Shown here: positions 23,564-63,205 of the stretch, one piece after another
How positions within the stretch are numbered: position 1 is the stretch's first letter
How the letters are laid out: each line of letters begins with the position of its first letter
Assembly: GCA_001661245.1 (NCBI GenBank)
Contig: KV454018.1
Coordinates: 183,944-247,793, forward strand
Length of the DNA: 63,850 nucleotides
Direction of reading: 5' to 3'
Source of the DNA: Pachysolen tannophilus NRRL Y-2460
Lineage: Eukaryota
Made by a program: the position numbers and the translations under genes
Notes under the pieces: generated by a model
Databases searched by the model: none
What the model was told of the DNA's origin: nothing
Seen by the model: the letters and a program-made list of their open reading frames with translations, nothing else

Positions 23564-24205
23564 ATGGAAGAAACTAATTATAAGAAGCGTGGGCTGTTGA
23601 TTTTGATTGAAGGTCTTGATAGAACTGGGAAAACAACTCAGACAATACTGTTAATGAATAAATTATTAAATGAAAAAATTCAAGCAAATTTAATTAAATT
23701 TCCTGATAGATCTACACCAATTGGTAAATTAATTAATACTTATTTAATTGATAAAGAAACTCAATTATCTGATGAATCTGCTCATTTATTATTTAGTGCT
23801 AATCGTTGGGAATTAAAAGATAAAATTATAAATAATTTACAAGAGGGTAAAATTATAATATTAGATAGATATGTATATAGTGGTGTTGCTTATTCTTCTG
23901 CAAAAGGTTTAGATTTTAATTGGTGTTTAAATGCAGATTTAGGATTACCAAAACCTGATAAAACAATTTTTTTAAATTTAGAAAATGATCAAGATTTAAT
24001 AAATAGAAAAGGTTATGGTGAAGAAAGATATGAAGTGAAAAATTTCCAAGATAAAGTAAAATTAAAATTTACGCGTTTTTTCAATGATAAAAATTGGGAA
24101 ATAATTAAAGTTGATAATAAAACAATAGATCAAATTAGTTTAGAAATTTGGATAAAAATTAAAGATTTAATTAATGGAATTGAAAAACCTATTGAATTTT
24201 TTTAA
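23564..24205 (+). CDS. CDC8: Thymidylate kinase
   Basis: P-loop IEGLDRTGKTTQ, KFPDRSTPIG, HLLFSANRWE, DRYVYSGVAYS. First ATG at 23564. Confidence 0.97.
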   Translation: MEETNYKKRGLLILIEGLDRTGKTTQTILLMNKLLNEKIQANLIKFPDRSTPIGKLINTYLIDKETQLSDESAHLLFSANRWELKDKIINNLQEGKIIILDRYVYSGVAYSSAKGLDFNWCLNADLGLPKPDKTIFLNLENDQDLINRKGYGEERYEVKNFQDKVKLKFTRFFNDKNWEIIKVDNKTIDQISLEIWIKIKDLINGIEKPIEFF

Positions 24206-24761
24206 AGAAAAAAATAAAAAAAAATATTTAAAAAAAATTTCAATATAAAAATTATAATATATTATTAAAAACTAATATACATTTAATATAATATAAATTT
24301 AAGTAAAATTAAAAAAAGCGATAGTCTTTCTTATCTGTGAATTCACATGATTTAACGAAAAGTAAACAAGAAAAAAAAAAAAAAAAACATCAACAACAAA
24401 AAAAAAAAAAAATTAGAATTTTTCAATAAGTCTTGTTCAAAAAAAAAAAAAGAAAAAAAAAAAAAATATTGTAAACAAATTTAATAAAAAAAAAAAAATA
24501 AAATTACAAAATTAAAAAATAAAAAATAAAAAATAGAAAAAAAATAAAAAAAAAATAGAGAGTTGAGTGTTAATAATAATAATAATAAAAAAAAAAGGAA
24601 AAATAAAGAAGTAAAAGTACATAAAAAAGAAAAAAAAAAAAAAATAAAGAGGAAAATAAAAAGCCATTTACTACTAATTATTACACCAATTCGAATCTCA
24701 TTGACACACAATTCATCAATAATACTTTTCTCCTTATCAATCAATCAGATTTTCATTCTTA

Positions 24762-26016
24762 TCAGAATGAACTTGTTAAAGCATATAATGCGATAAACGT
24801 GGAAGCTGCACTACCTAATATAGGTGCATTACCGAAGATAAGTCTTAAATCAAGAGCTCCATGAAAGATATATGATTTAATAGCATAAAAAATTCCTTCA
24901 CCTGTAAATCTATAAACCAATTCATCTTTAACATCGTCAAATGAAATATCACCTTGTAAAATGATTAAAGTTAAAATCAATTTAACTAAGGAGAAAATTA
25001 ATGGATCAAAAGAATATTTATAATTCTTTAATTTCCTATTACCTTGTTTTTTTACCGCTGTAAAATTAACATAAAATGAAATAAGTAATGGAAAGAAAAT
25101 AGAAATTAAACTCCACAAGAAAATAACTGTTAAAAATGAATCATTGAAAAATGTTTCAAAATTCCAAATTGGCCAACTTAAAGTATTATATGGTAAATTT
25201 TCTTTAACCAATTGTGGTACATAATATGATCTAGAAATAGTTGTCCATTCAAAATGATAATACAAAATATAGAAAAATTCGGTAAAAATTTCCAGCCCAA
25301 CAATACTAACAGGTGAACTAACTAAATCACGTACTGATTCATTTTGATCTTCAAAAAATTCTTCTAAATCATAATATTTATCAACAATTGAATCATAAAT
25401 TGATCCATAAATTTCTAAAGGTTTACTTGAAATTTTTTCAAAAAATGAAAATTTAGTGAATTTACTAAATGGACCAAGATGAGATTCCTCCGAGACTGCT
25501 TCAAAACCATTAGCAGTTTCATCTTCTGAAGATTCAGCTTGAGTAACTTCTTCTTCAACTTCATCATCGGTACTTGCACCAGAACCAATGCTATTTTCAG
25601 AAACATCTAAATTTTTTGAAGGAGTGGATGGAAACTTCAACGAACTTGCAAGTTGCTTCAAAGGTGAACTTTTTGATGGACTTCTATTCTTATGGCTCGA
25701 AACATATTTCGAGACAATTGGACTGACATCCGGATTTTGAACAATAAAATTTCCCAATTTTTCAATATAAACTTGTTTCAAATCTGTTTCCAAGAATTGA
25801 TTACTAAAGGTATTGAAAAAAATAAAAAAAAAAAAAAAAAATAAAAATTGTCAGTAAATAAATCAATTATATTTTGATAAGCGCGTTTAATATAATTGCG
25901 CACAGACAAAAAGATAGAGATACAAATAAATTAAAAAAAAAAGATACTCACCTTAAACCCAATTCTTCAGCCAATTCTTGAAGATCAACTTTTCTTAACT
26001 TTTTAATGCTACTCAT
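24762..26016 (-). CDS. GTT3: Gtt3-like membrane protein; exon 1 26016-25952, intron 25951-25804, exon 2 25803-24762
   Basis: GTGAGT donor, TACTGAC branch (25856-25850) and poly-T/TAG acceptor. Splicing gives in-frame MSSIKKLRKVDLQELAEELGLSNQFLETD..., matching the Gtt3-type N-terminus (KxDLxxLAxxL). C-terminal TMs include FYVNF...FDPLIFSLVKLIL. Confidence 0.75.
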
Positions 26017-26570
26017 CTTTTTTTTATTTTTTCAATTTTAATTATAACCAAATAAGTATTTATATATATAAAAATTAATTTTAAATATATATGATATATA
26101 TTATTTTATTGTTTGTTAATAAATAATAAAATATAAACAAATATAATAAAATGAGGAAATAAAGGAAAGAAAGGAAGTACAAGAAAAACAACAAAATGAG
26201 AATTTCTAAAATGTAAACAACTTTTTTTTTTTTTGGTTTTTTAATTTTTGGTTTTTTTTTGGTTTTGCGGCACTTTCTTTTGTTTTGCTTTAACTCCAGT
26301 GGGAGAACAACAAAAAGTAAGTAATAGTCCAAAAACCGACAGATAGATTTCAAAGATGCGTCAGAACAGTGTCAGAACAGCATAAACTAAAGTTTTAAGT
26401 GCTGTACAAGAGTATGTATACAAGAGTACACAAACACAAAAGGGGGTACCAAAAACAAAAGCAAAAACAAAAGCAAAAACAAAAACAAACACAAACACAA
26501 AAGCAAAAGCAAAAGCAAAAAAAAACAAAAGAAAAAAGACAATTGCGCTTTGCTTTATTATTTCTTATTG

Positions 26571-28607
26571 TCATACTGTTGAGCGTTGACGTGTAGAGTC
26601 TTCTTCGTCATCTATTTCATTCATAAGAAACGCCGGTACTAAAGCGCAAATTGCAATTCCTGATAAGGACCACCATGTAACCCAAGAAACCTGATGCTCA
26701 TCACTCCAACTCATGACGTAACCCCAAACCATTGGCAGTACACATCTAGCTAGTGCGCAAACAGATAAAGTTGTACCGTTAACAAATGCTCTGTTTTTCA
26801 GAGGGGATGCCCTATGGATTAACAACATTATCTGCGGGAAGCATATTGAGTTTGGAAGAACTTTAAAAAAAGCGAGTATGTACAAGAAAGCCTTTGTGTA
26901 GGCCAATGATGGTAAATTTGGAGGTAAGGTGAAAACTAAAAATGGAATAAATAGATAAACAAATGGCGGGATGCAAGAGACTGCTCTATAAGTAGCCACT
27001 GGTGCGTAGTTTCTATCCAAGTATGGGTATAAGAATATGACAATCATAACCCCAATTGTTCCTGTAACTGTTAAAAGGTTACCAACGTCTGTAGGGTTAA
27101 AACTTAAACCTCCCATTATCTTGAAGGGAAATTTTGAAAGTAAAGGTGATGATAAATCTCCATTAACGATTCTTGCAGTTTTCGAGGCCAAGAAAACGGG
27201 CAAGAATTCATCAACCACTGTACCATGTAGTGAGAGCATAAAGTTGGAACTTATGGCTTTAAAGACAGAAGGTGAAAGTAAAACTTTCCACTCATAAGTT
27301 CCCCTGTTTTCTTCTAGTTCTTCTTTTAACAGGTTTGACTGTAAAGAATATGTACGAATCAAGGCAAGAGATTGTCTTCTTGATAATGGGCCTATGGAAT
27401 GCACCGAATCGGCAGAATCTGTACTCAGGATTGAATCCGCATCGCTTGAGCCCATGGTTGTGGCATCCTCGTCATCGTCTATATCAAAAGTTTGATGTTC
27501 GCGGTCACACTCACGTTCACGTTCACGGTCACTCTCCCGATGCTCCAAACGTCCTTGATCTTCCTGTTCTTCTTGCTCTAATAACGGCGTGGTTTCCCGC
27601 GCTTCAAGTGATGTTTTCCCAACATTAACACCAAACGAAGAACCTCTTCCTAAACTACCTATATTTCTTGTAATACTATCACGGTGGGTGGCTGGAACTC
27701 TTTTTATTGTCTGTGGTAAAGAACCACTACCATTATAATTATCTAAAGTAGACGAAATTGTTCTTGCAATACTGTCACCATTAGTATTACTATTACGCAC
27801 CAATAATGAGGGTCTTCTCCCAGCAGGAACTTGTTGTTGTTGTTGTTGTTGAGCAGTATACAGCGGCTGCCAAGGACGTATTGAAGGTTGGAACCCAAGT
27901 TTTCTCAACAAGATATCTCCAAGTTCAACTCCATAATCTTTTTGGAATTTTTTCTGATAATGAGTTTCTTCAAAAAATAAGAAACAAATGGTTGCACTTA
28001 AAAATAATCCAATAGCTACTACAATATTAGATAATGCATATGGATATTTTTCTAGTAAATCAAAACTTCTTTTTGAAATTTTTTTTTCAACATCATTCTT
28101 CACTAAATATCCACTCATTGGACCTATAATACACCCCACCTGCCAAAGTAATGGCATTGTCGAAAATGCAATGGCTTGATGTCTTTTCTCCGTGGCAATT
28201 TCACCAAGTACAGTTCTAATAACCGCAACGTTACCATTTACAGCACCCATCATTGATCTTGCAAATAATGCCATATAATAATTTTTAGAAAATCCAAATA
28301 TCAACATACTTATCCCAGTCAATATCAATCCAGTCATCAACACTTTCTTCCTTCCAATCATATCTGATAAATGACCCCAATGAATCGAACATAAAAATTG
28401 ACAAAATGCAAATGAAGAAGATAAATAACCAACATACTTTGATATATCCGCTGGATCCTTAGCTATTCCAAAATCTCGCACCATAAAATATACATAGGGA
28501 AACAAAGATGTAAATGCAATCGGTTCAGCAAACCTAATAATACATATAACCACAATTTTCCATACAGGAAATCCTCTCATTTGTTCTTTAAAAGTTAGCT
28601 TCGTCAT
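26571..28607 (-). CDS. MFS transporter, YCR023C-like
   Basis: MTKLTFKEQMRGFPVWKIVVICIIRFAEPIAFTSLFPYVYFMVRDF, MFS motif A (WGHLSDMIGRKKV) and a long central loop. Confidence 0.88.
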   Translation of the reverse strand: MTKLTFKEQMRGFPVWKIVVICIIRFAEPIAFTSLFPYVYFMVRDFGIAKDPADISKYVGYLSSSFAFCQFLCSIHWGHLSDMIGRKKVLMTGLILTGISMLIFGFSKNYYMALFARSMMGAVNGNVAVIRTVLGEIATEKRHQAIAFSTMPLLWQVGCIIGPMSGYLVKNDVEKKISKRSFDLLEKYPYALSNIVVAIGLFLSATICFLFFEETHYQKKFQKDYGVELGDILLRKLGFQPSIRPWQPLYTAQQQQQQQVPAGRRPSLLVRNSNTNGDSIARTISSTLDNYNGSGSLPQTIKRVPATHRDSITRNIGSLGRGSSFGVNVGKTSLEARETTPLLEQEEQEDQGRLEHRESDRERERECDREHQTFDIDDDEDATTMGSSDADSILSTDSADSVHSIGPLSRRQSLALIRTYSLQSNLLKEELEENRGTYEWKVLLSPSVFKAISSNFMLSLHGTVVDEFLPVFLASKTARIVNGDLSSPLLSKFPFKIMGGLSFNPTDVGNLLTVTGTIGVMIVIFLYPYLDRNYAPVATYRAVSCIPPFVYLFIPFLVFTLPPNLPSLAYTKAFLYILAFFKVLPNSICFPQIMLLIHRASPLKNRAFVNGTTLSVCALARCVLPMVWGYVMSWSDEHQVSWVTWWSLSGIAICALVPAFLMNEIDDEEDSTRQRSTV

Positions 28608-29029
28608 TTTTTTTCACCACCACCAAATAAATGTATAATATATATAAAAAACGAAAAAAAAAAAAAAAAAATAGCAACAGCAAGATAATTTGTTCTATTC
28701 TAACCTCTTAACTATTCATCACCTATCAGGTTTATAACATCCAATCTCTTCAACACCAATAAAAGAAAAATAAAACTCATATCTTCTTTCCATTTTATTC
28801 ATCGGTCAAAAACACGTAACTAAAATCCAAAACAGCAGACATAAATTCTGACACAGTAGTGTGATCCAGTACAAATGAGGTAAAGTAAAGTAATAAGAGT
28901 TGTTTTTATAAGGGAAAAGCATTTAAATGATAGTTTTATAAAGTGTGTGTGTATATCAAATTGTAAGGAATTTGTATTGATGATTGGGTGTTTAGTTTAG
29001 AAGGATTTGTTTGTTGTTGAGAGAAGAGA

Positions 29030-30349
29030 ATGCCAGAGATGTCACTGTCACCATTGATTAGTCTGTATGTGAGACTTGAGGAAGATTTTTATAAATTGAC
29101 GAAATGTAAATTGAATTCAAAAGGTTTATCATCATTAATGATTAAACAATTGATTTTACAAAGTTATTCACCAAAGATTTCAGTTCTTTCAACACCTTTA
29201 GCCAATGAATATGCTTGTAAGTTTGGGTTAAAAAATTTTTTGGAATTGTTGAATTATTTTGAAGATTCTTTATATCAACAATCTTCAATTTTAACGAATA
29301 AAGTTCATGTAAGATTTTTAAAACCTATTGATGAATTATTGAGAGATCAAGGTAAATTACAGAAATTGATAAATGATAGTAAAAGAAATATTAGTGGGCT
29401 TAATTTTAAAAATAATGTTTCTACAGAATTGTTCAACTTAAATACATTAGAAGAATCATCTATAGAATTTGCTAGACATATTCAAATTTTAAAATCATCT
29501 ACATCAACAACTTCATCAACAACATCTCAACCGGATAATAATGATAATATTCTATTGCATAACTCAGCTTATTTACATACTATAGCCAAGATTTTATCAT
29601 CATCAACAATTTCACCTTTTGAAACTTTTAACCATCCAATATTACAATTATTGGTAGTTTCTGCAGAAGATACATTAGCAGATGCCAAAAAATTGAATTC
29701 AGATTGGAAATATTTAAATTATCCAAAATGGATTGATATCGATAAGATTTTACCTCTATTTGTTATTGTTGTGGATTCTAATAGTCCTGAATCTTTACAA
29801 AGGGGTTTAAATTTACAAGAACAGTTGAAATTACAATTAAATATAAGATCAATAATTTTACCATTATTAATGCCAACAGAAGAAAATAAAATTGATGAAG
29901 AAAAAGGATATGAAATAATTCATCCGCCATTGTTAGCTTCTTTAGCACAACAAGATCCGAATTTATTAAAAAATTTAAAAATTCCTACAAGGATTAAAAA
30001 TGCAATTAAAAACCTAATAGTTGATATTATAAATAAGACTTTAGTACCTTATATGAATAGAAGAGTTAATATCTTGACAGAAGAAGTTGTTAATCCAAGG
30101 AAAAGTTTTACCGGAAGATTGTTCAATGTGGGTAAAAGATGGGGGTCAGGAGCTTCTTCTTCGTCTTCTTCTTCTTTAACTGCTACACAAGGTGGTGGAT
30201 CTCAAGGTGTTGGTTATAATGCATTAGAAAATTTTTATTATCCTAAATCTAGTGAATTTTTAATTAGACAATTAGCTGATTGGCTATTTATGTTAAAAGA
30301 TTATAAAACATCATATACAACTTATGAATTATTTATATTATATTATTAA
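29030..30349 (+). pseudogene. TRS85: TRAPPIII subunit Trs85, N-terminal 434 codons, truncated at an inversion breakpoint
   Basis: Trs85 motifs PFETFNHPI and IRQLADWLFMLKDYKTSYTTYEL. Homology ends at 30331 and is followed by the AT-rich junk tail FILYY*. Confidence 0.82.
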
Positions 30350-30700
30350 TTTATTATTTAATTAGTTATATGTTAACTTAACTGGCCCATGAATTATCTA
30401 ACATAAAATTTGTTAAAAAAAAAAAAATTTGTTCTCGCGCAAAATTTCACATTTTTCATTTTGCCTTAAAAACTGGTTAAAATTTCTATACATTTCATGA
30501 GACAGATAACCGAAAAGGAATACGTAGAGAACGGGGCGTGAAAAACTGCGGGAAGGGTTGATATTGATGCTGCTTTTAATGTAGGTTGGTAGATAGATAG
30601 GTAGGTAGGTACATGATGGTCTACAATTTCATGTTTACTTTTAACTAAAATTACAACTAGATATATATATGAATATATATATATATAATTTTTATTTTTA

Positions 30701-31342
30701 TTATATCTTAATTTCTTCAAATTGTCGTATTGCCAATTTAAACCACAATTCCGATTTTCTATGTCTAGTAAAGCCTAAAATCTCATAATTTTCCTTTTCA
30801 TAGTTTTTCTTTAAAAAATTTGGAACTTGTTGATCTTGTTCTTCTGTTGTCATGGTTGTCATGATTTCAGTTCGTTGTTTGATAGTGGCTGGTGATAAAT
30901 AATAGTAATTATCATAAACGTAGCTGATTCTTTCCATCAAGTAAGACTTGTTGAGGTTATCTATCAAATTGTTATCAATTACTTTGTTAAACAATGTGAC
31001 TGCTTCTTCACAATAGAAACTATTGTTTAAATTACTATGATTATAGAATTGATTTGATTCGGTTAAAGTTATGAATAATTCACCAATGATTATTAAAGAT
31101 CTTAATGAAAAAGTCTTTAAATAACATCTTGAAGTGTAAGAATAATGCAAAGAATCAACCATTGGAACAATCAAATCGTCTATGATCTTCGATGTGATAC
31201 CATTGTTGTTATTAGAATTAGCAGTTACCGTAGTGGTATTATTAAATTTATTACTTGCTCCAATTAATAAACTGATAATCATAAATTCTTGTAATGATGC
31301 CAAATAATTCCATGATTTTTCATTAAGAAAATCTTTTTTCAA
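30701..31342 (-). pseudogene. TRS85: Trs85 C-terminal 213 codons, inverted relative to the N-terminal part
   Basis: Starts LKKDFLNEKSWNYLASLQE, the direct continuation of the Trs85 motif ...YELLKKDF.N.K.W.YLAS.QE. Ends with G.TR.RKS.LW; it has no natural ATG start. Confidence 0.82.
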
Positions 31343-31419
31343 GAGAAGTTTAACTGAGGTCAATCAGGTTATAAGATTTCTTTATATTGATTATTTAGTT
31401 ATAAGGAAAGGATAAAAAA

Positions 31420-33294
31420 ATGAAATATTCGTTGATTTCTGTTATTTGTTGTTTCTATTATTTATCAACGCTTACTGCAGGGTTTTATTTGCCAGGTGTT
31501 GCTCCGTCAACTTATGGTAAGAATGATAATGTTCCATTGTTAGTTAATCATATTACTCCATCATCTAAGTATGAGAATACTGATTCGAAGACGTTTGTTT
31601 ATTCTTATGATTATTATTTTCCAAGGTTTCATTTTTGCCAACCTGAAGGTGGTCCAAAAAAACAGTCTGAATCTTTAGGTTCAATTATCTTTGGTGATAG
31701 AATTTTTAATTCTCCATTTCAAATTAATATGTTAGTTAATAAGACTTGTGAGAAGTTATGTACTGCTACATATTCAAAGACTGATGCCATTTTTGTTAAT
31801 AGAAACATTAGGGCTGGTTTCCAACATAATTGGTTGATTGATGGTTTACCTGTTGCTAGAGATATGTTTGATAAAAAGACTAGTACTGAGTTTTATGGTG
31901 CTGGATTCCCAATTGGTTCAGTTGATGACTCGGTTTCACATTTGAGTAACCATTATGAGTTGATTATTGAGTACCATCAAAGAGGCGAAAATGAATATAG
32001 AGTTGTTGGTGCAACTGTTAATCCATACTCAATTGAAAGAACTGAACAAGATTTCTCCTGTGATGTTGCCGATGTTAATGCTGTAAGATTGGACCAAAGT
32101 AAAGATACAGATGTGGTCTTTTCTTACTCTGTTGTATTTGTTCCTTCCTCGACAGCATGGGCAACAAGATGGGATAAATATTTGCACGTTTATGACCCAA
32201 AGATTCAATGGTTCTCCTTAGTTAATTTTTCAATTATTGTGATCTTGTTATCCTTGATTATGTCTCATATCTTACTTAAGACTTTAAGAAATGATATACA
32301 GAGGTACAATGAAGTTAACTTGGATGAAGATATAATTGATGAAATGGGCTGGAAATTGGTTCATGGTGATGTTTTCAGATCTCCAAAGAATAGAATGCTC
32401 TTGTCAGTCTTTGTTGGTTCAGGTATCCAGATTTTCTTGATGACTTTGGTCACCATATTCTTTGCGTTATTAGGTTTATTGTCACCATCAAATAGAGGTT
32501 CTTTGGGTACTGTTATGTTTTTACTCTTTGCTGTCTTTGGTTCCATCGGTTCATTTGCTTCTGCTTATTTGTACAAATTTTTCAACGGTGATAATTGGAA
32601 ATTAAATATGATCTTATCACCTCTTGTTGTTCCAGGTGCCTTATTTGTCTGCTTCGTCTTATTAAATTTCTTTTTAATCTTTGTTCATTCTTCAGGAGCT
32701 GTCCCAGTTGGAACAATGTTTGCTATAATATTTATTTGGTTCCTTGTTAATGTCCCATTATCAGTTGCCGGAAGCTTATTTGCCTACAAGAGACCTGCAA
32801 TGAAATTACCTGTTAAAGTTAACCAGATCCCAAGACAAATTCCAAAACAACCATGGTATTTGAGAACTTTACCATTAGCTTTAATTGCCGGAATTTTCCC
32901 ATTCGGTTCAATTGCCATTGAAATGTACTTTATCTATAATTCTCTTTGGTTCAACAGAATTTATTACATGTTTGGATTCTTGTTTTTCTGTTTTATCCTT
33001 ATGATTGTCACTACAGTCTTGGTTACAATATTATTGATCTATTACACCTTGTGTAATGAAAACTATAAATGGCACTGGAAGTCGTTTTTCATTGGTGGCG
33101 GTGTTGCAGTCTACATCTTCATTCATTCGATATTATTATCAAGGTTTAAATTAGGCGGATTCTCGTCATTTGTATTATACTTTGGTTATTCAAGTATTAT
33201 CAGTTTATTAGTAGGAATTGTTTGTGGTACTGTTGGATTCCTTGGATCATTACTATTCGTGCTAAGAATCTATGATGCTATCAAGATTGATTGA
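31420..33294 (+). CDS. EMP70: Transmembrane-9 (nonaspanin) protein Emp70/Tmn2
   Basis: Signal peptide then FYLPGVAP, SESLGSIIFGDRIFNSPF, WATRWDKYL, GWKLVHGDVFR, C-terminal IKID. Confidence 0.93.
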   Translation: MKYSLISVICCFYYLSTLTAGFYLPGVAPSTYGKNDNVPLLVNHITPSSKYENTDSKTFVYSYDYYFPRFHFCQPEGGPKKQSESLGSIIFGDRIFNSPFQINMLVNKTCEKLCTATYSKTDAIFVNRNIRAGFQHNWLIDGLPVARDMFDKKTSTEFYGAGFPIGSVDDSVSHLSNHYELIIEYHQRGENEYRVVGATVNPYSIERTEQDFSCDVADVNAVRLDQSKDTDVVFSYSVVFVPSSTAWATRWDKYLHVYDPKIQWFSLVNFSIIVILLSLIMSHILLKTLRNDIQRYNEVNLDEDIIDEMGWKLVHGDVFRSPKNRMLLSVFVGSGIQIFLMTLVTIFFALLGLLSPSNRGSLGTVMFLLFAVFGSIGSFASAYLYKFFNGDNWKLNMILSPLVVPGALFVCFVLLNFFLIFVHSSGAVPVGTMFAIIFIWFLVNVPLSVAGSLFAYKRPAMKLPVKVNQIPRQIPKQPWYLRTLPLALIAGIFPFGSIAIEMYFIYNSLWFNRIYYMFGFLFFCFILMIVTTVLVTILLIYYTLCNENYKWHWKSFFIGGGVAVYIFIHSILLSRFKLGGFSSFVLYFGYSSIISLLVGIVCGTVGFLGSLLFVLRIYDAIKID

Positions 33295-33981
33295 ATTACT
33301 TTCTCTGACTATAAATCAGTGAAAAATATATAATACAAGCCGCTGTAGAATTAGACTCATTTTATACAAAAGAAATGATTGACAGAAATGAAAATTTGAA
33401 CAAAAAAAAAAAGAAAAAAATAAACCAAACTAAAACTAAAAAACTAATAATACATTCAGGTAACAATATTTCTTTTATTTATGCTGATTGTTTTTCAATC
33501 GTTGATGTATAAGCTGTAAACGAAATTTCATATTTCGTTGCTTATTGCTGCTTAACCATTCTTTGTTTGAAAATAAAATCAATAACATTAGTCAAATAAA
33601 TATTTCTTTTTAGTTAGTTAGTTAGTTAGTTAGTTAGTATATATTATGTGTTTTATACTTCTCTTCAGATGGATATATTAAATAAAGATTTATTTTTTTA
33701 TTTATTTCAAATTTGTATTTTACGATTTCATTTAAACAAAAATCAACCCATCCAGTTTAAAAATGGAATTATAAATATAAAAAACAAATAACCTATAATA
33801 CAACAAAAAAATTTATAAGTTTTTGGAAAACACTAAAAGGAAATAATAAATGAAATAAAAAAACAAATAAAGTTCAAAAAAAAAAGAAAAAACCTCCAAG
33901 TTAATGAATATTATTATTATTAATTTGAGCAATCAATAAATATTGTTACAACATAAATAATACGTAATTGTAGTTCTAGTT

Positions 33982-37041: not shown

Positions 37042-37247
37042 TAATCAATCTATTTTTTCGGTAAGATTTTTTTTATTTTCTTTCTTTCTTTCTTCCTATT
37101 TATTTTGGATAAGAGAAAGTTATTATTTTTGCTCAGCAAAAATAAAAACACTTTCCAAAACAACTGGTAAAATTAATAAAATCTTTTATAAAAGCGTTTA
37201 TTAAAGCTGAAACATATATATATTAATTATGAGTTCAAATTTACTAC

Positions 37248-37766
37248 GGGAAAAAAATTTAAAAAAATTAAAAAAATATGATGGAAAAATGCGAACGGGA
37301 ATTTTTCCAATTTTTATACGTAATCATCCAGGCTTTAAGGAAAAATCCCCAGAAATTTTAAGCGTGAGCCTATTATAATCGTTATACACAAAGAAAAAAA
37401 TGAAAAAATGAAAACAAAGGGCAAATTTGCCCTTTGTTTTTTATTTTTTTTATTTAAAATTTTGTGGGGTACCATTTTCCCGGGTTAACTTTTGCCGTTA
37501 CTCATTTCAAGCGCAAGGTATTAAATTATTAAATTATGATAACGTAATAACGTAATAACGTAATAACGTAGTACAAATTACAAAATACAAAGTTTAAATT
37601 ACTAAGTACTAAGTATTAAATACAAGGGACTAAATAAAACTTTATATATTTCTGCCCTTCCTCCAATACCGATTAACCAATTTATTTGAAATTTTTCCGA
37701 AACGTCGCATTACGTAAGTTAATAATTGTAATCCGAGATTTTTTGATTACTGATCTCATCTGGGGC
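37248..37766. promoter_or_regulatory. Divergent RGT1/EAP1-like promoter with CGG-A-tract and Mig1-like sites
   Basis: CGGGAAAA 37248, CGGGAATT 37296, TTTTCCCG ~37476, TTTTTCCG ~37692. Mig1-like CCCCAG ~37347, TTTTGTGGGG ~37460 and CTGGGG ~37760. Confidence 0.45.
37411..37440. repeat. Perfect 30-bp palindrome
   Basis: AAAACAAAGGGCAAATTTGCCCTTTGTTTT equals its own reverse complement. Confidence 0.95.
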
Positions 37767-49070: not shown

Positions 49071-49105
<35 letters not shown>

Positions 49106-49477: not shown

Positions 49478-49627
49478 TGTAATAAATTATTACACGCAAT
49501 GTAATCTCTAAAGTAAAATAATAAAAAAAAAAAAAAAAAAAATAGGAATAAAAAGGTATATAATATATACATAAATTGGAAAAAGGCATAATACCAACCT
49601 TGTGTCTTTGTATTTTTGTTTTTCTTC

Positions 49628-50446
<819 letters not shown>

Positions 50447-50657
50447 TTAATTAATTATTTAATTAATTATAATAGTAATTAATTTATTATTATTGTTTAT
50501 TAGAAAAGGAATTAATTAATTAAATTATAATATATAGTTTAGATTCGTTGTTTTAATAAATCAAATTATTCGTTCCCACACAAGCGAGAAAGACTGAGGT
50601 GGAGAGAAAGAAAATTGTCGACGAAAATTTTCAATGATTTCAGAGCTGATGATCGGG

Positions 50658-50668
50658 GGACTCGAACC
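50658..50668 (-). promoter_or_regulatory. Isolated Pol III B-box (GGTTCGAGTCC)
   Basis: Perfect match to GGTTCGANTCC with no T-stem, cloverleaf or clear A-box. Confidence 0.5.
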
Positions 50669-50989
50669 GGGGATTTTTACCTTGAAAAAAAAAAAATTAT
50701 ACTTTCTTTGTCTTCCCCATTGGGAAGGCCATACACGTGTATTTGATTTGGCCCCTAAACGTTTTGACAGAAGGGCTTTTTTGCGGAAATTTAAATTTTT
50801 TTTTTTTTTTTTTTTTTCTAAACTTTCCGAGTTCGATTTCGCATTGAGAATTGAAAACCAAAATTTTTTTTACTTTTTCTTGCTATTCTTCCCTCGTTTT
50901 TCAGTATATGCTAGAGAAGGCAGCATAGGCAGGCAGCAAACAATATCAAAATATAAGTAACTGTACTTTGTTTCAACATATATTTATTA

Positions 50990-51030
<41 letters not shown>

Positions 51031-51144
51031 TTGAAATTGAATTTGAATTTCAAATTGATTTAATTTTTTTTCTTCCTTCTTTTAATCATCATTTAATTAT
51101 TATAAAGAATATAGTAATATCTCAAATCAATTCAAATCAATTCA

Positions 51145-54100: not shown

Positions 54101-54626
54101 AGAAGAAGATACTCCGATTGTGTCTTCCGAGATGGTTTTGCAACTGCAACCAGTACTGGAGGTACTGGAGGTACTGGAGGTACCCAAGGTACAGGCTGTA
54201 CCGGCGGTATCGGCAACAGAACCAGTAACGGTATCTACCGAAACCCTGGAGAATCAAGCTGTTAATGAACTGCCATCTTCATATGGTAATAATTTTTCAA
54301 GACTGAATGGAAATAGTAGTAACTTGGAGACAAAACCACAAGCCAATGGAGTTGCAAATATAGATTCAAATTTACTGAATGCCAATAATGAAACAGTAAA
54401 TCATCTCGCTGATGATACTGAAACAGAGAATACGTATATCCACGAACCTACAAACTTAGAGAACAATATTCAACATGACGGTAACGCAAAATATGACAAT
54501 ACTGACAATGATGTCAGCAATAAGAATACTAAAGCTTCCAATAAAAAGGGTAGTAAAAATGTTAAACGTAATAAGAACAAAAACCCATTTCATAAAAAAG
54601 TCTTGGGCTGGTTCGACATTGAGTAG
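51145..54626 (+). CDS. SEG1: Seg1/Seg2-like eisosome protein; exon 1 51145-51192, intron 51193-51296, exon 2 51297-54626
   Basis: GTATGT donor, AACTAAC branch (51268-51274) and TTTAG acceptor give in-frame MPFGFGNSRRRRSSRGLYTT. Motifs DGRTKSLTKQTITRMGSFEVVKTTT and PDELYxMAFKVA resemble the Seg1/Msc3 family; repeated RSNSL and a basic C-terminus. Confidence 0.55.
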
Positions 54627-54963
54627 ACTTAACTGAGAAACCTGCCAAACTGTTTCCATATAACTATTTACAAGTGTGTGTTTTTTTATTGTGAATTTAT
54701 TGTTTTTTATTAAAATCTTTTCTGAAATATGTATAATAATTTAACACTGCTTTAATGTGAAAAAAGTACTTTTTTTAATTTAATAATATAATAATATAAT
54801 AATATAATATACGAGATTCACTATTGTGCGCAATATATATATATATATCGATATATAGATATATATAGCACATGACTGTTGTTCTATTGATATAGTCTTG
54901 AGTTAGAGTTGGTATTTAGTTGTTTAGGCTTGTTAATCATTTGTTTTTTAATTTTTGTATATA

Positions 54964-56004
54964 ATGGGGCAAGAGATAATACATGAAATATTTAACGCGT
55001 CGCCAGTTGTTGATTCAGATACTTTTCAATTACAACGAGAAAATGAAGAACCAGAGACTGAAGAACGAGAAATGGATGAGGTAGATGAATTATCAACTTT
55101 TGAAAGTGTGAACCAACTGAAGCTGAAGCTGCAGTTAATGATCAAAGTTTTCACGTTAATAGAGACAAAGTTGAATTTATATTATTTAAATCATACAAGT
55201 GCACCAGAAATGGATTTAATTGTGCGATATTTAACTAGTAGTTTGAATAAGAGAATTACAGTTGATATTGTTTTAAGAATAACTTTTATATGGCCAGAGT
55301 CTTTTAAAATTTTTAAAAATCTTAAGAATAATAATATTTATATTGATTTCCATGAACAAGATAAATCTTTCTTGAAAAATTATAACGATAGGAATCTTAT
55401 TTTTATGGAAAAATTGAATGATTGGATTATTAAGAATGGAGAGAATTATCAAGATATTCCTTTAGGAAAGATAATAAATGATAATGTATGTTTTAATTCA
55501 TCAGGGCAAGATGGTAAAGTTTCTAAATTAAAAAATAAAATCATTAAAAATTCATCATTAAAATTTGATTTTAAAGAGAAAAAACTGTGTGATATAATAC
55601 ACAAGAATCTTACGATATTACAAAGGATAAAATTGAAAGAAGAAGAAACAGCAAAGAAATTTCATCAATCTGAAATAATTTCTGAAAAGGATAAATTAGA
55701 TAATTCTAAAATAATCAAATTTTATGATATCTTGTATACTTTAAAATTATCCAATATTAATTCCAATTCAACATATATAAATTTCACTCTAAATGATTTG
55801 ATATTGAAAATAAAAGATTCATTAAATGTTCAAAATGGTGATGATTTTGAAATTGAAAAATTGTTACAAAAATTAAATTCAATTTTAAAAGATGAAAAAA
55901 AGATAAAGATAGGTACAACTAAGGGAAATTTGAAAATAGTGAAAATAGGTTCCGCACTAAATAGAAATCATGACTTGAAATTGATCCAGAATTCAACTCA
56001 ATAG
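54964..56004 (+). CDS. TAH11: Cdt1/Tah11-like replication licensing factor
   Basis: Winged-helix-like RITVDIVLRITFIWPESF and the Cdt1 motif LTILQRIKLKE (cf. SLLERI+.KE). First ATG at 54964. Confidence 0.55.
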   Translation: MGQEIIHEIFNASPVVDSDTFQLQRENEEPETEEREMDEVDELSTFESVNQLKLKLQLMIKVFTLIETKLNLYYLNHTSAPEMDLIVRYLTSSLNKRITVDIVLRITFIWPESFKIFKNLKNNNIYIDFHEQDKSFLKNYNDRNLIFMEKLNDWIIKNGENYQDIPLGKIINDNVCFNSSGQDGKVSKLKNKIIKNSSLKFDFKEKKLCDIIHKNLTILQRIKLKEEETAKKFHQSEIISEKDKLDNSKIIKFYDILYTLKLSNINSNSTYINFTLNDLILKIKDSLNVQNGDDFEIEKLLQKLNSILKDEKKIKIGTTKGNLKIVKIGSALNRNHDLKLIQNSTQ

Positions 56005-56307
56005 ATCTAATATAGATAGCACTTTAAACTTTTAACATTCTCATCTTGTAGTCTTCTCTATCTATCTATCTTTTTATCGGTCTTTTTCTTTTTTTTTTTA
56101 GTTATTTTGGTAATTAATCTCAAGCCCAAATTGGGAAAACCAAGTTCCGAGGAATGAACCAGTTTTAAAGGTTAATCAAATTCAATTGATTTTTTTGAAA
56201 TAAAGATATTTAGTTATTGATTATCTATTTAAAAGATCAATTGGTTGGTATTTTATTTTCAGAAAAGGTTCCGTATTTTTGTGGTTTCTGATATATATAT
56301 ATATAAG

Positions 56308-56346
<39 letters not shown>

Positions 56347-56351
56347 TATAT

Positions 56352-58829
56352 ATGATGGATGGTTCCATCAGGAATAGTGATTTGGCAAATTTACTTTATC
56401 AACCAAAATATGTCCGGACTTATAAGAAGAGTAAGAAGTCAACGCAACAATTTCATAAAATATTTCTAGCACAACAATTGAATGGTAGTAATGGGAAGGC
56501 ACCTATTCTGCAAATAGATTTAGAGAATCAGTATTCAACTTATGATGTAACTGGGCTTCCATCAAAGAATGAAAATAATAGTTCTGAGAGTAATAGCTCT
56601 GAAAGCAATAGGAGTAATAGTAATAGTAATAGTACTAGTAATAGTAATATTGTTGTTGGTGATGATAATAATGATGGTAGTATTATTTTCAATGGCGGCG
56701 ATGAAAACGATAAGAAGCAAAAGAAGAGTACTGATAATTCCAAATCTATATGGACAATGGAATTTAGTAAAGATGGAAAATATTTGGCAACTGGTGGTCA
56801 GGATGGTATAATAAGAATTTGGAAAACTTTATCTTCACCTTTAAGTAGATTGGAATGTGAAACGGAAGCCAAAAATCCTACTTCGAATCATACTACAGAT
56901 ACAACTTATGATGATACAAATAGTAACTTTAGTAATAGTTTCCAATCTTCAGATAAATTATATGCTCCTGTTTTCCATCCGTCACCTATTAGAGAATATC
57001 ATGCTCATCTGCAAAGTGTATTATCATTAAATTGGTCAAAAAATAATTTCTTATTATCTTCATCAATGGATAGAACTACTAAATTATGGCATGTTGATCG
57101 TAAAAGTTGTTTAAAAACTTTTCAACATGATGATTTTGTAACAAGTTGTTGTTTCCACCCTAAGGATGACAGGTTTTTCCTTAGTGGTTCATTAGATAAT
57201 AAGTTACGTCTTTGGTCAATCTTAGATAATGAAGTTGTAAGTGAAAAAATCTTACCTGGACTAATAACTGCAACTTGCTTTACTCCAGATGGTGAAAAAG
57301 TGGTTATTGGTAGCTTCAATGGTTGGTGTTATGTTTTAGAAACTAGAACATTTGATATTATTTATGAATTTGAAATTAAGAAAAAAAAATCTTATTTACT
57401 TCATCATAGAAATACTCAATCATCTACTAGCAGTGGATCAAAGATAACTGGATTGGATGCTTATGAAGTTAGAGAAAAAGATCATTCTACAAACCTTTCA
57501 ACTTTAAAATTACATATTTTAGTTACCTCCAATGATTCAAGAATTAGAATATTTGATTGTGATTCAAAATCATTAACCTGTGAATTTAAAGGATTAAGTA
57601 ATGAATTTTCACAAATTGCTGGGAACTTGGATGAAGAAAAACAATTTTTAATAAGTGGTTCTGAAAATCATTGGTGTTACATTTGGGATGTAAAAGAAAG
57701 GCAAGAAATACCTAATAAGAAATTACATAATTTCTTATTATCAAAACGTAATCATTCAACTAAGACTTTGAATAATAAAGTGAAAAATGTAGCTGTGAAA
57801 AATAATAATTATATATGTTTCCATGCCCATCACACAGAGATAACAAACGCAGTATTTGCACCATCATTAACAACAAAGTTATTGGAGTTATCAAATGATC
57901 CTTTGTGTGAACTTTATCATAACAGACAAATTCTTTTATCGGGTCTAACTTCTTCTTCTCCACCTTCAGGTTGTCAATCATTTTCATCAAATAATTCATT
58001 GGCTGCTACGAATTCCAAATCTCATTCTCCATTATCAACATCAACACAAGAAACACCCAACGGAAGTGGTGCAAACTCTGCCACTGCTGCTACTTCTGCC
58101 ACTGCTGCTGATTCAGCCGCTGCTACCGCCTCAGCGGCTGCTGCCAAGGAGATAGAAGACGAATTTCATCCATCAACTGCAGTGATTGTAACGTCTGACC
58201 AGAATGGTAATATAAAAGTTTTCAGACAAGATTTTTGCTATAATATACGGAGAGCAATTTTACTGCATGATCATTCCAAGAAAAGACCTATCTTCCGAAC
58301 TGTTGAATCAAATGGTTCATTTGTAACATCTTTAGTACCTTCATCTCATCGAAGATTAAGTGTCTCAAGAGCATCAAACGAAGGTTCATTAACAAGACCA
58401 AAATCATTGTTAAGATCGGGATCGAAGAAATTGAACAGAAATTTATCTGTCCCACTAGCATCTTCCTCTGTGGCAACAATCACAGAATCAGAAAATACAC
58501 TGTCCGGAGCTAGTAGCACTAAACTGTTACAAATAGACGATGGATGGCCTTCAAAGTTGTCATCCCATTCCACTTCTCATGCAAGTTTCTCTAGCTCTTC
58601 AATTGGAGACGATTCAACTTCAAGCATGTCACTACAACATGAAGTTTCATTCTCAGATCATCCTGATATAGCAAATTTGACCCATTTTGCACGTGAAGAC
58701 GATGAATTAAATGAACGTGTGGCAAAACTTTCAACTAATGATAAAGAAAATAAAGAAAATAAAGAAAATCACAGAGGAAGAAAAAGACTAAATTCTTTAG
58801 ATGAAAAAGTGTTGGGGAATAGTCATTAA
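56352..58829 (+). CDS. DGR2: WD40 protein, Dgr2/YMR102C (WDR44-like)
   Basis: FHKIFLAQQL, IWTMEFSKDGKYLATGGQDG, LNWSKNNFLLSSSMDRT, FHPKDDRFFLSGSLD, LVTSNDSRIR. Confidence 0.82.
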   Translation: MMDGSIRNSDLANLLYQPKYVRTYKKSKKSTQQFHKIFLAQQLNGSNGKAPILQIDLENQYSTYDVTGLPSKNENNSSESNSSESNRSNSNSNSTSNSNIVVGDDNNDGSIIFNGGDENDKKQKKSTDNSKSIWTMEFSKDGKYLATGGQDGIIRIWKTLSSPLSRLECETEAKNPTSNHTTDTTYDDTNSNFSNSFQSSDKLYAPVFHPSPIREYHAHLQSVLSLNWSKNNFLLSSSMDRTTKLWHVDRKSCLKTFQHDDFVTSCCFHPKDDRFFLSGSLDNKLRLWSILDNEVVSEKILPGLITATCFTPDGEKVVIGSFNGWCYVLETRTFDIIYEFEIKKKKSYLLHHRNTQSSTSSGSKITGLDAYEVREKDHSTNLSTLKLHILVTSNDSRIRIFDCDSKSLTCEFKGLSNEFSQIAGNLDEEKQFLISGSENHWCYIWDVKERQEIPNKKLHNFLLSKRNHSTKTLNNKVKNVAVKNNNYICFHAHHTEITNAVFAPSLTTKLLELSNDPLCELYHNRQILLSGLTSSSPPSGCQSFSSNNSLAATNSKSHSPLSTSTQETPNGSGANSATAATSATAADSAAATASAAAAKEIEDEFHPSTAVIVTSDQNGNIKVFRQDFCYNIRRAILLHDHSKKRPIFRTVESNGSFVTSLVPSSHRRLSVSRASNEGSLTRPKSLLRSGSKKLNRNLSVPLASSSVATITESENTLSGASSTKLLQIDDGWPSKLSSHSTSHASFSSSSIGDDSTSSMSLQHEVSFSDHPDIANLTHFAREDDELNERVAKLSTNDKENKENKENHRGRKRLNSLDEKVLGNSH

Positions 58830-59239
58830 ACAGAGATAGTCAATTCAATCATTGTTATAAATATTATATTTATTCAAAGAAAACAAAAAACGGTATAAAA
58901 TTGGATACATAATTCTTTCGTTATACTTTACTTTACTTTTACTTTAACTTTATTTTATTTTATTCCTTTTGGTTCTAAAAGCTTTATTCTTTTTTTGTTA
59001 TTTTCGTTCATACTTCTGGTTATCTGTATATTAGGTTCTATTAGTAGGAGGTTTTTTTGGTGAGCTCATATATATATGTATATATTTATATGAATGATAT
59101 TTCTTTTGTATTCAATGTTTTGAAACTGGTATTGAATTCTCGTGTAAACTTTTCATGTAAATAAATAAGTAAATAGATCATATATACGAAGTAGAGAACT
59201 TGTGTTTATAATTGATAGAAGGCACCAGACAACCAGACA

Positions 59240-59910
59240 ATGGACTATGATGGTTATACCGTGTTGAAGCAAGTGAGATCGATTTCTGATTTACCATCGG
59301 CGTTGGAGATCAATTCAAAGACTTTTCATTTAAAACTTGCATTTTACCTATTGACAATATACAAAGATCCGTATAAGACCCATATTCCACCTCAATTACT
59401 AGTGACAGATTTTACTGAAAATAAGGAGATTCGAAGTTCATTGATTCCCATTGATTGTGATTTTGGAGATGTTGAAAAATCCCAAGTACTATCACAAGGT
59501 AATTTTTTTTTCAATATATCATTGGAGTATATGCAATTAGCAGAGTTCTTGAATGAAGTAGCAAAGATAATAGGTAGAAGACCAAATCCTAGTCACCTTA
59601 CTGATTGTATGTTAACAAAGTATGGATTGACATTGGAAGTGGATTTGTTGTTGAAGACTTATAATAATCAGATTCAAGGTAAATGTTTAAATTTTAAATT
59701 ACTGGATTATAACTTATGGGAATTGAATAATCCCAAGATAAACAATTTAGTTTTCAGACTTCAAGATTTTGCAACTCATGATTGGATTGAAAGGCTACCT
59801 GGGTACAGCATTTTTTACAGAAAGCTTCATGATGTTGTGAAACTGAGTGAACCAAAGGTTACAAGATTGCCGAAAGATGAAAATACTTTGGAACCGAAAA
59901 TACCAGAGGA

Positions 59911-59944
<34 letters not shown>

Positions 59945-60448
59945 CCTGTAAATAAGAAGAGAAAAGTGAACCCCGCATTTTTGTTTAACGGCAGCAGGAC
60001 TCATGGGAATAATAATGTAGACACCCAGCAATTGTTAAATGATCAACTTTCAGGATCAACACAACTCTTCAATGATTTTGAACAAGACATTTTATTTGAA
60101 GAAAATGAAGAAGACGTAGATTTCATAACTACAACAATTTCATTAAAAGACCTAATCAGAACTTCGTCCTCGAAAACAAATAACAATAAGATACTTGAAG
60201 TCAAAGGTTATCTCATAAATTATGATCATAGCTACGGTAAGAATAATTACATTTTTGTAGAAAATTTAAGCTTAAAGAAGATCAACAGTAATAACTCCAT
60301 TGTTATTAATACTAGCAGCCAGCAGCCACACATATCGTTGAAACTGAATAAACTCCTTGAAAGACCCATAACTTTAAAGATAAAGAAAGAATTTAAGCAA
60401 ATTGGAAATTTGTGGAAACTGTTTTATCATTTAATTGAAATTGTATGA
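59240..60448 (+). CDS. Unknown protein, possibly a two-OB-fold telomere protein (Cdc13/Pot1-like)
   Basis: 402-aa ORF with LLVTDFTEN and LKTYNNQIQG motifs, a low-complexity linker containing (CTG)10, and a beta-rich C-terminal domain. Confidence 0.55.
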
Positions 60449-60538
60449 AAAATAAATTGACGGTGTCGCGTCTTTATTTTTCAACCAAACTGTATATTGT
60501 ATTATTAAAATATATAATTAAATTATTAAGATTAAAAT

Positions 60539-61747
60539 ATGAAAAGAATGGCAGCGTGAGTCTATTTATTTCTTGATTATATTACCATTGAGTAGAGAAG
60601 GTTAACTAACATATAGAATAAAAATTATAATGTAATATTTGTTATTTGTTATTTGTTATTTATTATTATTAAAAGTAAAAAAGAGATTACTGAATCGTTT
60701 AAATTTACGAGAAATTCAAAAGTTCAAATGAAGTTTGGTGCTCATGTAGGTATGGCCGGAGGAGTATCTAATTCCATAAAGAATTGTATGGATATAGGAG
60801 GGAACTCATTTGCTCTTTTTTTAAAATCGCCAAGAAGATGGGAATCACCACCATATTCAAAAGAAGAAATAGAGACATTTCATAATTTATGTAAAGAATA
60901 CAATTATAATCCAAGAACAGATATTCTTCCTCATGGATCATATTTTATCAATTTAGCTAATCCAGATCAAGAAAAGGAATTGAAGGCTTATGATTCATTT
61001 TTGGATGATTTGAAAAGGTGTGAACTTTTAAATATTGGACTTTATAATTTCCACCCAGGTAGTGATCTAGGTTCAGATCATACAACTGCTTTAAAGAAAT
61101 TAGCATCAAATATAAATAAAGCCATTAAAGAGACAAATTTTGTTAAAATTGTTATTGAAAACATGGCGGGACATGGTAACTTAATTGGATCTGATCTTAA
61201 TGATATTAAATTTGTCATTGATTTAATTGAAGATAAATCAAGAGTTGGTGTTTGTATAGATACATGTCATTCATTTGCTGCAGGTTATGATTTGAGAACT
61301 GAAGAAACCTATAAAGAATTTTGGGATAAATTTGATGAAATTATTGGTCGTAAATATTTAGCTTCAGTACATTTAAATGATTCTAAAGCACCAATTGGTG
61401 CTAATAGAGACTTACATCTGAAATTGGGTTATGGTTTTCTTGGATTAGAAACTTTTAGGTTAATTGCCAATGATGAAAATTTGCAAAATATTCCAATAGT
61501 ATTAGAGACACCTGTGGATAAAGGTAATGAATCAGAATATGGTGATGAAATCAAGTTATTGGAATGGTTGATTGGTAAATCAAAAGATGACTCTGAATTC
61601 AAAGAAAAATCTGCAAAATTATCAAAATTAGGTGAAAGTGAAAGAAAAGATCAATTGGCCAAGTATGAGAAAAAAGTTACTAAAAAACGGAAAAGTGAAA
61701 ATGATATTCTTTCAGCATTAAAGAAGAATAATAAAAAATCCAAATAA
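60539..61747 (+). CDS. APN1: AP endonuclease (endonuclease IV family); probable exon 1 60539-60555, intron 60556-60675, exon 2 60676-61747
   Basis: KFGAHV, PHGSYFINLAN, YNFHPGS, IENMAG, CIDTCHSFAAGYD, HLNDSK, LETP. A GTGAGT donor and AACTAAC branch lie upstream, and the AAG acceptor at 60675 is in frame. The identity is secure; the exon structure is inferred. Confidence 0.9.
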
Positions 61748-61906
61748 AAGTTTCTTTGGCTTTTTTCTTTTTTTTTGTTTTTTGTTTTTTGTTTTTGCTT
61801 TTTGGACTTTAAATGAAATTGAAATGAAAAAAAATTAACTATCTCTCTAAATATTTGTCTACAAATTCTATATATAAAATTTTTATTTATTTAATTAATT
61901 AATTTA

Positions 61907-63205
61907 TTAGTTACCGTTTTCAATTTTTACATCTTGTGCTTGTATCTTTTTTGAATCACTTAATCCATTTTTTTCTTCAATATTTTTTTCAGATTTAACA
62001 CCATCAAACAGCCAATGTTCATCTGTTGAAACTTTAAATTCAAACCATTTAAGTACTAATTTTTCAATTTTATTTCTTAATTTAGTAAAATCTTCATCGT
62101 TTATGGTAACAATTTCAGGTTTTTGTAATAAATGTATCAAGACTTTATTTAATTTTGTATTTTTTATCAGACTAATCTCTGCTGTTTTCATCTTTGATAA
62201 TTCATCAATTAATTGAATAATACGATCAAAATCTGTATTTTTTTTAAAATTTTTTAAATAATTAATATATTCAGCAGAAGTAAAATTATTTTTCGGTATT
62301 AAAAGTTTTTCTTGTAATAAAGTCCTAGTATTGAAAAAAATCTTTGTATGTTTGTTAATATTTTCAAATAATTGTTTTGATGGTGGTATGAATTTAGTAA
62401 CAATATCAGTATTATTTTCATTTTCATCATCTAATCCCCAATCAGAATCAGAACTTTCTTCTTCTTCTTCTTCTTCTTCTTCAGATTCAAGGTAATCATC
62501 TTCACCATCTATTTCATCACCTTCTATATCGTCATGACTCTTTGACTTGACAATTTTCTTTGTCTTTTTTTTCCCATTACTTTTATTCTTTGATAATGTA
62601 GATTTCAGTTTCAGTTTCAATTTTGTTGATTTTTTTTTCTGTGACAGCAGCGGCAGAGATTTTTTCCTCTTTATACTTTTCCTTCTAGGAACAACAACCA
62701 CTTCCCCATCATCATCATCTTCATCGTCAAACGCAGCATCATCAATATCTACATCTGCATCCAGGTCCAGATCCAGGTCCAGAACTGCATCGGCATCTAC
62801 ATCTGCTTCAGCATCTTCATATTCACCATTGGCATCCGTTTCAAAACCTTGATTTTCAACAACTGATTCTGGTTCTGGTTCTGGTTCTGGTTGCTTTGGA
62901 ATCACATCTTCCGATTTCGGGTTAGTTTTCGCAATTTCAAAAGCTTTTCTTAAATTTCCTTTACATTTCTTTGGATTTTCTAAGAATTTTTCAATATATT
63001 CAATATCAATTTTTGTTAAATTTTTAGCACTATTCCAAAAAAATGTATTATCACCCAAGAAAAATACCGGATATACAGCGTGTTTAACTTTTGGTTTTTG
63101 AGATAAAACATTCGCAGGTAAACGAGATTCGGGACATATAATTGCAGGCCAAGCAGCATATCCTGGAATCTTGGACAACACCAATTCCTCTTCGTTAAAT
63201 GACAT
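61907..63205 (-). CDS. PDP3: PWWP-domain chromatin protein, Pdp3-like
   Basis: LVLSKIPGYAAWPAIICP...VFFLGDNTFFW PWWP domain, acidic/basic linker and a C-terminal helical TKLNKVL domain. ATG at 63205. Confidence 0.6.
   Translation of the reverse strand: MSFNEEELVLSKIPGYAAWPAIICPESRLPANVLSQKPKVKHAVYPVFFLGDNTFFWNSAKNLTKIDIEYIEKFLENPKKCKGNLRKAFEIAKTNPKSEDVIPKQPEPEPEPESVVENQGFETDANGEYEDAEADVDADAVLDLDLDLDADVDIDDAAFDDEDDDDGEVVVVPRRKSIKRKKSLPLLSQKKKSTKLKLKLKSTLSKNKSNGKKKTKKIVKSKSHDDIEGDEIDGEDDYLESEEEEEEEEESSDSDWGLDDENENNTDIVTKFIPPSKQLFENINKHTKIFFNTRTLLQEKLLIPKNNFTSAEYINYLKNFKKNTDFDRIIQLIDELSKMKTAEISLIKNTKLNKVLIHLLQKPEIVTINDEDFTKLRNKIEKLVLKWFEFKVSTDEHWLFDGVKSEKNIEEKNGLSDSKKIQAQDVKIENGN

Follow-up and report, generated by a model that had tools for sequence, protein, structure and literature searches.

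The window and its reading frames

The DNA analysed here, called the window throughout, is a stretch of 63,850 nucleotides from contig KV454018.1 of Pachysolen tannophilus NRRL Y-2460 (assembly GCA_001661245.1, positions 183,944 to 247,793 of the forward strand). Its open reading frames (ORFs) contain many in-frame CTG codons, and the question addressed is which amino acid the codon (CUG in the mRNA) stands for. CTG was found not to serve as a leucine codon in the window. With a probability of about 0.9, the window belongs to a yeast of the CUG-Ala clade (order Alaninales), in which CUG is read as alanine by an alanine-identity tRNA with a CAG anticodon, as in translation table 26. An earlier note on this DNA had proposed a non-standard code of the kind known from Pachysolen, in which CTG is no longer leucine, and this proposal held: leucine was rejected, and alanine stands in the gene models of the contig. 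CUG-Ala decoding is already known, and nothing in the window is new in kind.

The window is AT-rich, with a GC fraction of 0.23 to 0.36 when measured in 4-kb steps. Under the standard code (table 1), 26 ORFs of at least 150 amino acids (aa) were present, and 24 were kept as credible. One ORF was dropped because the DOA10 ORF on the complementary strand contains it, and another, of 168 aa, was dropped as spurious because it crosses a gap of N within an (AAT)n repeat. Pfam assigned names to 16 of the 25 products submitted. These included a DOA10-like RINGv protein, a copper amine oxidase, GDE1, a thymidylate kinase, an MFS transporter, Trs85, EMP70, an adenylate kinase, a mitochondrial carrier, an endonuclease IV/APN1 protein and a PWWP protein. 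The gene content of the window is that of a budding yeast.

CTG accounted for 155 of the 13,777 codons in the 24 ORFs, and at least one CTG occurred in 20 of them. Runs of at least two held 35 of these codons, and the other 120 were isolated. An in-frame CTG was found at each coordinate given in the earlier note, including those at both ends of its range of 23594..62782, but the pattern is wider and starts at 5204 in DOA10. The accompanying statement that the code changes every translation is right for most of the ORFs, not for all. The sites discussed below and the other features of the window are listed in Table 1.

Table 1. Coordinates of CTG codons, triplet repeats and other features in the window (positions are those of the window)
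Feature	Position	Strand	Observation
Credible ORFs (24)	4349..63205		155 in-frame CTG codons
CDC8 (thymidylate kinase), codon 11 CTG	23594-23596	+	opposite residues K, Q, A in three solved thymidylate kinases
CDC8, codon 29 CTG	23648-23650	+	opposite residues I, I, K in the same three solved thymidylate kinases
ADK1 (adenylate kinase), codon 219 CTG	49751-49753	-	D/E in homologs
ADK1, codon 136 CTG	50000-50002	-	K/E in homologs
ADK1, codon 33 CTG	50309-50311	-	E/K in homologs
APN1 (endonuclease IV family), codon 231 CTG	61418-61420	+	E (chain 10nh), H (chain 1qtw)
GGC1 (mitochondrial GTP/GDP carrier), codon 114 CTG	48427-48429	+	E (chain 9wv2)
MFS transporter, codon 624 CTG	26736-26738	-	column G 75, A 43, S 0, L 0 (n = 118); ln(A/S) = +6.0
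Amine oxidase, codon 281 CTG	12289-12291	+	column F 88, I 11, L 9, A 7, S 0 (n = 118); ln(A/S) = +6.0
Secreted-protein ORF (13720-14688), codon 115 CTG	14344-14346	-	A 25, S 11, T 4 (40 homologs); no Leu
Secreted-protein ORF, codon 80 CTG	14449-14451	-	S 26, T 4, A 3, K 2, D 1, gaps 4 (40 homologs); no Leu
PWWP-domain gene, four CTG alternating with Asp	62762-62782	-	surrounding tract of Asp alternating with Ala or Val
(CTG)6 in CTG frame	51537-51554	+	in ORF 51459-54623
(CTG)5 in CTG frame	51696-51710	+	near (CTG)6, same ORF
(CTG)10 in CTG frame	59912-59941	+	hydrophilic stretch ..KIPEE-X10-PPVNKKRK..
(CTG)n repeat in GCT (Ala) frame	51481-51492		same ORF as (CTG)6
Triplet run in GCT (Ala) frame	58102-58110
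Triplet run in GCT (Ala) frame	36852-36863
tRNA-Pro(TGG)	16051..16122	-	sole RNA gene found by ARAGORN and Rfam in the window
Lysine-rich ORF	9677-10825	+	382 aa
Trs85 homolog ORF	29030-30349	+	439 aa
N run	21823-22198		beside poly-A
N run	49107-49441		within (AAT)n repeat
Single N	8184; 22204; 22211
Dropped ORF	6688-7170	-	inside DOA10 ORF
Dropped ORF	49066-49572	-	crosses N gap

CTG does not behave as a leucine codon

To keep the translation neutral, each CTG was rendered as X, and six of the products were aligned to solved structures. Opposite 16 CTG sites, the nearest solved homolog carried K, I, E, K, D, E, D, N, V, K, E, T, D, V, Y and I. Leu, Ala and Ser were each found at 0 of the 16. 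Second solved homologs carried Q/A, I/K, K, E, E, H, A, K, F and K opposite CTG sites.

A profile test in the style of Codetta was performed on three products: the secreted protein (40 homologs), the MFS transporter and the amine oxidase (118 homologs each, among the 120 matches listed). The window's own records and two Pachysolen-named proteins were excluded from the profiles because of circularity. The query was kept out of the profiles, which were made with hmmbuild --hand --enone, as the default entropy weighting flattened the columns too far. The score of each codon was the summed log emission at query positions with a column occupancy of at least 50%, which covered 1,502 of 1,667 positions. 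As a control, 59 of the 60 other sense codons were assigned their standard residue, and the sole miss was CGG, with one site. At the 15 CTG sites, Ser was the best residue, followed by Ala (1.6 nats behind it), Thr (11 nats) and Leu (20.5 nats). Sets of 15 genuine Leu codons were drawn at random 2000 times, and likewise sets for Ala and for Ser; the correct residue was returned in every draw.

The columns opposite CTG were compared to those opposite the other Leu codons. A plurality of L, I, V, M or F was found in 2 of 15 CTG columns versus 113 of 128 columns of other Leu codons (Fisher p = 3e-9), and a plurality of Leu itself in 0 of 15 versus 83 of 128 (p = 7e-7). Codon usage gave the same result. 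CTG made up 155 of the 393 codons in the CTN box (39%, or 33.5% without CTG runs), whereas the G-ending codons of the other seven four-codon boxes made up 5 to 13% of each box and 396 of 4451 codons when pooled (8.9%; versus CTG p = 1e-52). This difference in share indicates that CTG is decoupled from the leucine family. CTG does not serve as a leucine codon here.

Public records and relatives point to alanine

The public protein records of the window's own products carried A at every CTG compared: 3 of 3 in P0001, 5 of 5 in P0048 and 4 of 4 in P0168. The last two were otherwise identical to the reading made here. Furthermore, an exact look-up of CDC8, ADK1 and APN1 found the table 26 translations of all three (NCBI, UniRef, nr), and neither the table 1 nor the table 12 translation of any of the three was present in the public collection.

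After the window's own records, the best species-labelled matches were P. tannophilus NRRL Y-2460 proteins in two of three families. The match to the MFS query covered 44% of it at 53% identity, and that to the amine oxidase covered its full length at 70%. In each homolog, we counted the Leu residues at columns in which a single residue other than Leu is shared by 70% or more of the remaining sequences. The nearest relatives of the window are P0050, P0170 and P0171. In P0050, which is 60% identical within the alignment, Leu stood at one column where all 118 others have Ala and at another that is 69% Ala, and P0170 and P0171 carried Leu at one column that is 82% Ala. The codon of the window at these columns is a GCN alanine codon. 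At Ser columns of 70% or higher conservation, Leu was seen in none of the three proteins. Leu at Ala-conserved columns is what standard-code translation of a CUG-Ala yeast leaves behind. The window was placed in the Ala clade from the P. tannophilus matches, the Leu of its relatives at Ala columns and the table 26 records.

Other homologs, namely P0198, P0222, P0270 and P0280 for the amine oxidase and P0128 for the MFS transporter, had Leu at between 3 and 6 of the conserved Ser columns, which indicates that the signal from Leu at conserved columns is real. The large protein collection evidently contains CUG-Ser yeast proteins to which the standard code was applied, and such proteins can place false Leu in alignment columns. 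A further homolog, P0235, is labelled Kocuria palustris, a bacterium; it is 62% identical to the amine oxidase and carries Leu at 5 conserved Ser columns. It seems to come from a contaminating CUG-Ser yeast contig in a bacterial assembly, with the bacterial table used for its translation.

CTG triplet repeats

The (CTG)6 and (CTG)10 runs reported earlier were both present in frame. Six pure (CTG)n/(CAG)n runs of at least 3 units occur in the window, and all six lie within ORFs. Three are in the CTG frame and three in the GCT (Ala) frame; none of the six is in a Cys, Gln or Ser frame. If CTG is Ala, a (CTG)n repeat encodes poly-Ala in every frame but one, and the frame choice of these runs is suggestive of alanine. 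The ORF with (CTG)6 and (CTG)5 contains 44 CTG codons. A library search with it returned six weak matches (best E = 4e-18, 37% identity), which were too few and too distant and were not used.

Alanine, serine and the other readings

The sites of the window were then scored for alanine against serine. The log-likelihood ratio (LLR) of Ala over Ser across the 15 CTG sites was -1.6, compared to +14 to +60 for sets of 15 true Ala codons and -48 to -9 for true Ser sets. The CTG sites match neither true-Ala nor true-Ser behaviour. The strongest Ala-over-Ser sites in the window were MFS codon 624 and amine oxidase codon 281, where Ala is admitted and Ser occurs in none of the 118 homologs.

Several points weigh against the alanine reading, and they are of two kinds. 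Among the local sites, Ser was the top-scoring residue by the small margin given above. Eight of the 15 sites had ln(A/S) below -1; their columns belong to loops or to the surface and abound in S, T, D, K or N. When the per-site ln(A/S) values were compared empirically with those of true Ala and Ser codons, the result was -6.5 toward Ser. Ala-plurality columns were found at 2 of 15 CTG sites versus 46 of 84 GCN sites (p = 0.004). This fits poorly with the statement, made in passages of Muhlhausen et al. (2016; PMC4937558), that Pachysolen CUG codons stand mainly at conserved alanine positions. The other points concern the records, the relatives and the tRNA. Public annotation is an assumption of the annotators or depositors and says nothing on the ribosome. 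The Pachysolen-named matches could be paralogs from the same genome or orthologs from a sister species. The Leu residues of P0050, P0170 and P0171 at Ala columns would be CTG codons, as we infer from the protein sequences. Finally, neither ARAGORN nor Rfam found a tRNA with a CAG anticodon within the window.

The sites singled out in the earlier note did not decide the matter. It had held that a D-A alternation in the PWWP gene and the thymidylate kinase site favour Ala over Ser, and no such discrimination was obtained. The Asp-CTG alternation in the PWWP tract is real and Ala is a somewhat better fit there, but Ser is tolerated too. At CDC8 codon 11, Ala stands in one thymidylate kinase chain, which we take to be the human one, but K and Q stand in the two others. 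In APN1, where A or E had been expected after the histidine, homologs carried E and H but no A. The amine oxidase site RSI-CTG-YR (codon 281), previously called uninformative, falls in a hydrophobic column and was weaker than stated. The ortholog columns opposite CTG, whose tabulation the earlier note had suggested with a view to Leu or Ser, were mostly neither: Ser had a plurality in 2 of 15 (versus 44 of 108 for true Ser codons) and Leu in none, but the columns were seldom Ala either. A classifier based on the profiles of flanking residues was also tried and discarded, since it ranked the true residue first for only 7 of the 38 codons with n of at least 100; the tabulation under it, whose classifier failed these controls, had CTG often flanked by Q, P and H. 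Because Ser scored slightly above Ala, the assignment of alanine rests on the annotation, the relatives and the published mass spectrometry, not on the sites of the earlier note.

The foremost competing explanation is that CTG is serine, by table 12 as in Candida or as in Saccharomycopsis and Ascoidea, and that the contig was annotated with the wrong table. The first rank of Ser in the three-family test (posterior 0.835) and the shift of the per-site comparison speak for it, as do columns rich in Ser, Thr or Asp at secreted-protein codon 80 (S in 26 of 40) and MFS codons 394 and 426, and the column of amine oxidase codon 244 (T 56, S 25; n = 118). However, Ser is absent at MFS codon 624 and amine oxidase codon 281, with ln(A/S) near +6 at each, and the LLR of the CTG sites lies outside the true-Ser range. 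The absence of the table 12 translations of CDC8, ADK1 and APN1 from the public collection next to the presence of the table 26 ones, the Leu of the nearest relatives at Ala-conserved but not at Ser-conserved columns, and the Pachysolen proteins as best species-labelled relatives also speak against it. In addition, the score of the CDC8 product against chain 5uiv, which we take to be from Candida albicans, was 188.8 bits and did not exceed that against chain 1tmk (196.7 bits), presumably from S. cerevisiae. A serine code is therefore considered unlikely.

Mixed or context-dependent decoding, with CTG read as Ala and at some sites as a second residue such as serine, appears less likely still. 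It would account for CTG sites that fit neither the Ala nor the Ser pattern, some being Ala-only and others Ser-like, and stochastic decoding of CUG, as Ser and Leu, is described for Ascoidea asiatica (PMC6041473). However, the same behaviour is equally expected if the CTG codons are merely young and stand at tolerant sites, and a DNA window cannot reveal mixed decoding. For P. tannophilus itself, passages of PMC4937558 report liquid chromatography-tandem mass spectrometry (LC-MS/MS) with Ala at 97.2% of 907 fully supported CUG positions and an ambiguity no greater than at AUG.

The standard code, with CTG as leucine that falls by chance at the variable positions of these genes, is the least credible explanation: hydrophobic contexts at amine oxidase codon 281, at DOA10 codons 401 and 567 (opposite V and I of the solved structure) and at two CTG codons in a SUR7/PalI domain would suit it, as would Q-rich tracts (H-L-Q-X-Q-L-Q-X) that would form a Leu-Gln alternation, but the score of Leu far below the best residue at a sample size where true Leu codons were always recognized, its absence as plurality residue and from the nearest solved homologs, the excess of CTG over other G-ending codons in an AT-rich sequence and the lack of table 1 translations of the three genes looked up in the public collection leave it hardly any room.

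Origin of the CTG codons and consequences for annotation

According to the literature, an alanine-identity tRNA whose anticodon mutated to CAG would read CUG as Ala. The tRNA-Leu(CAG) would have been lost, and the CUG codons would then have dwindled and later been recaptured. In agreement with this account, the present CTG codons of the window stand mostly in variable polar columns, in Q-, P- and H-rich low-complexity tracts and in (CTG)n repeats, and look evolutionarily young. Their youth would explain why Leu was clearly rejected while Ala and Ser were not separated, and why no conserved-Ala signal like that of the GCN codons was seen. A young and still expanding population of CTG codons, growing through (CTG)n slippage and through fresh mutations at surface sites that tolerate them, is far likelier than mixed decoding.

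The main consequence is for annotation. The sequences of 20 of the 24 products differ by the table chosen, and the standard code would turn the (CTG)6, (CTG)5 and (CTG)10 runs into false poly-Leu tracts. Table 26 is therefore advised for windows of this genome. There is also a lesson of method. With a few dozen local sites, the former meaning of a reassigned codon can be rejected confidently, yet the new one may go unnamed, because recaptured codons occupy young and poorly conserved positions.

Other features of the window

The lysine-rich ORF has many short tandem units of K-A-D-P, K-A-D-S or K-A-E-L and no Pfam match. The ORF of the Trs85 homolog spans profile positions 1-374 of 453, and the gene may continue past 30349 after an intron or a frameshift. 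Two N runs, both in intergenic simple sequence, are probably assembly gaps, and three single N were also present (Table 1).

Comparison with known CUG systems

Like the window, the CUG-Ser code of Candida and Debaryomyces (Ser1, table 12) has CTG removed from leucine and placed at polar, variable sites. Unlike that code, the window has annotation and nearest relatives that indicate Ala, and two of its sites exclude Ser. The CUG-Ser2 clade (Saccharomycopsis, Ascoidea) also consists of AT-rich budding yeasts with a reassigned CUG. The window differs from it in having no trace of Leu use, in contrast to the Ser/Leu decoding of Ascoidea asiatica. Furthermore, the amine oxidase of Ascoidea rubescens ranked only 94th among the 120 matches listed (61% identity), which argues against any special closeness.

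The window is most like the CUG-Ala code (table 26) of Pachysolen, Nakazawaea and Peterozyma, three genera that form a single Ala clade in passages of Krassowski et al. (2018; PMC5951914). P. tannophilus is placed in the order Alaninales by the NCBI taxonomy. For this species, PMC4937558 reports that the tRNA(CAG) has alanine ancestry and bears G3:U70 and A73, and that 16,824 CUG positions affect 4210 of 5288 genes (80%). This published proteomic and tRNA evidence presumably applies to the CTG codons of the window, where the share of affected ORFs is likewise about 80%. As in that system, CTG is not leucine, the gene models carry Ala and the sequence is AT-rich. The CTG codons of the window stand mostly in variable polar columns, in a small sample drawn from other proteins, and the window shows no difference in kind from the CUG-Ala system.

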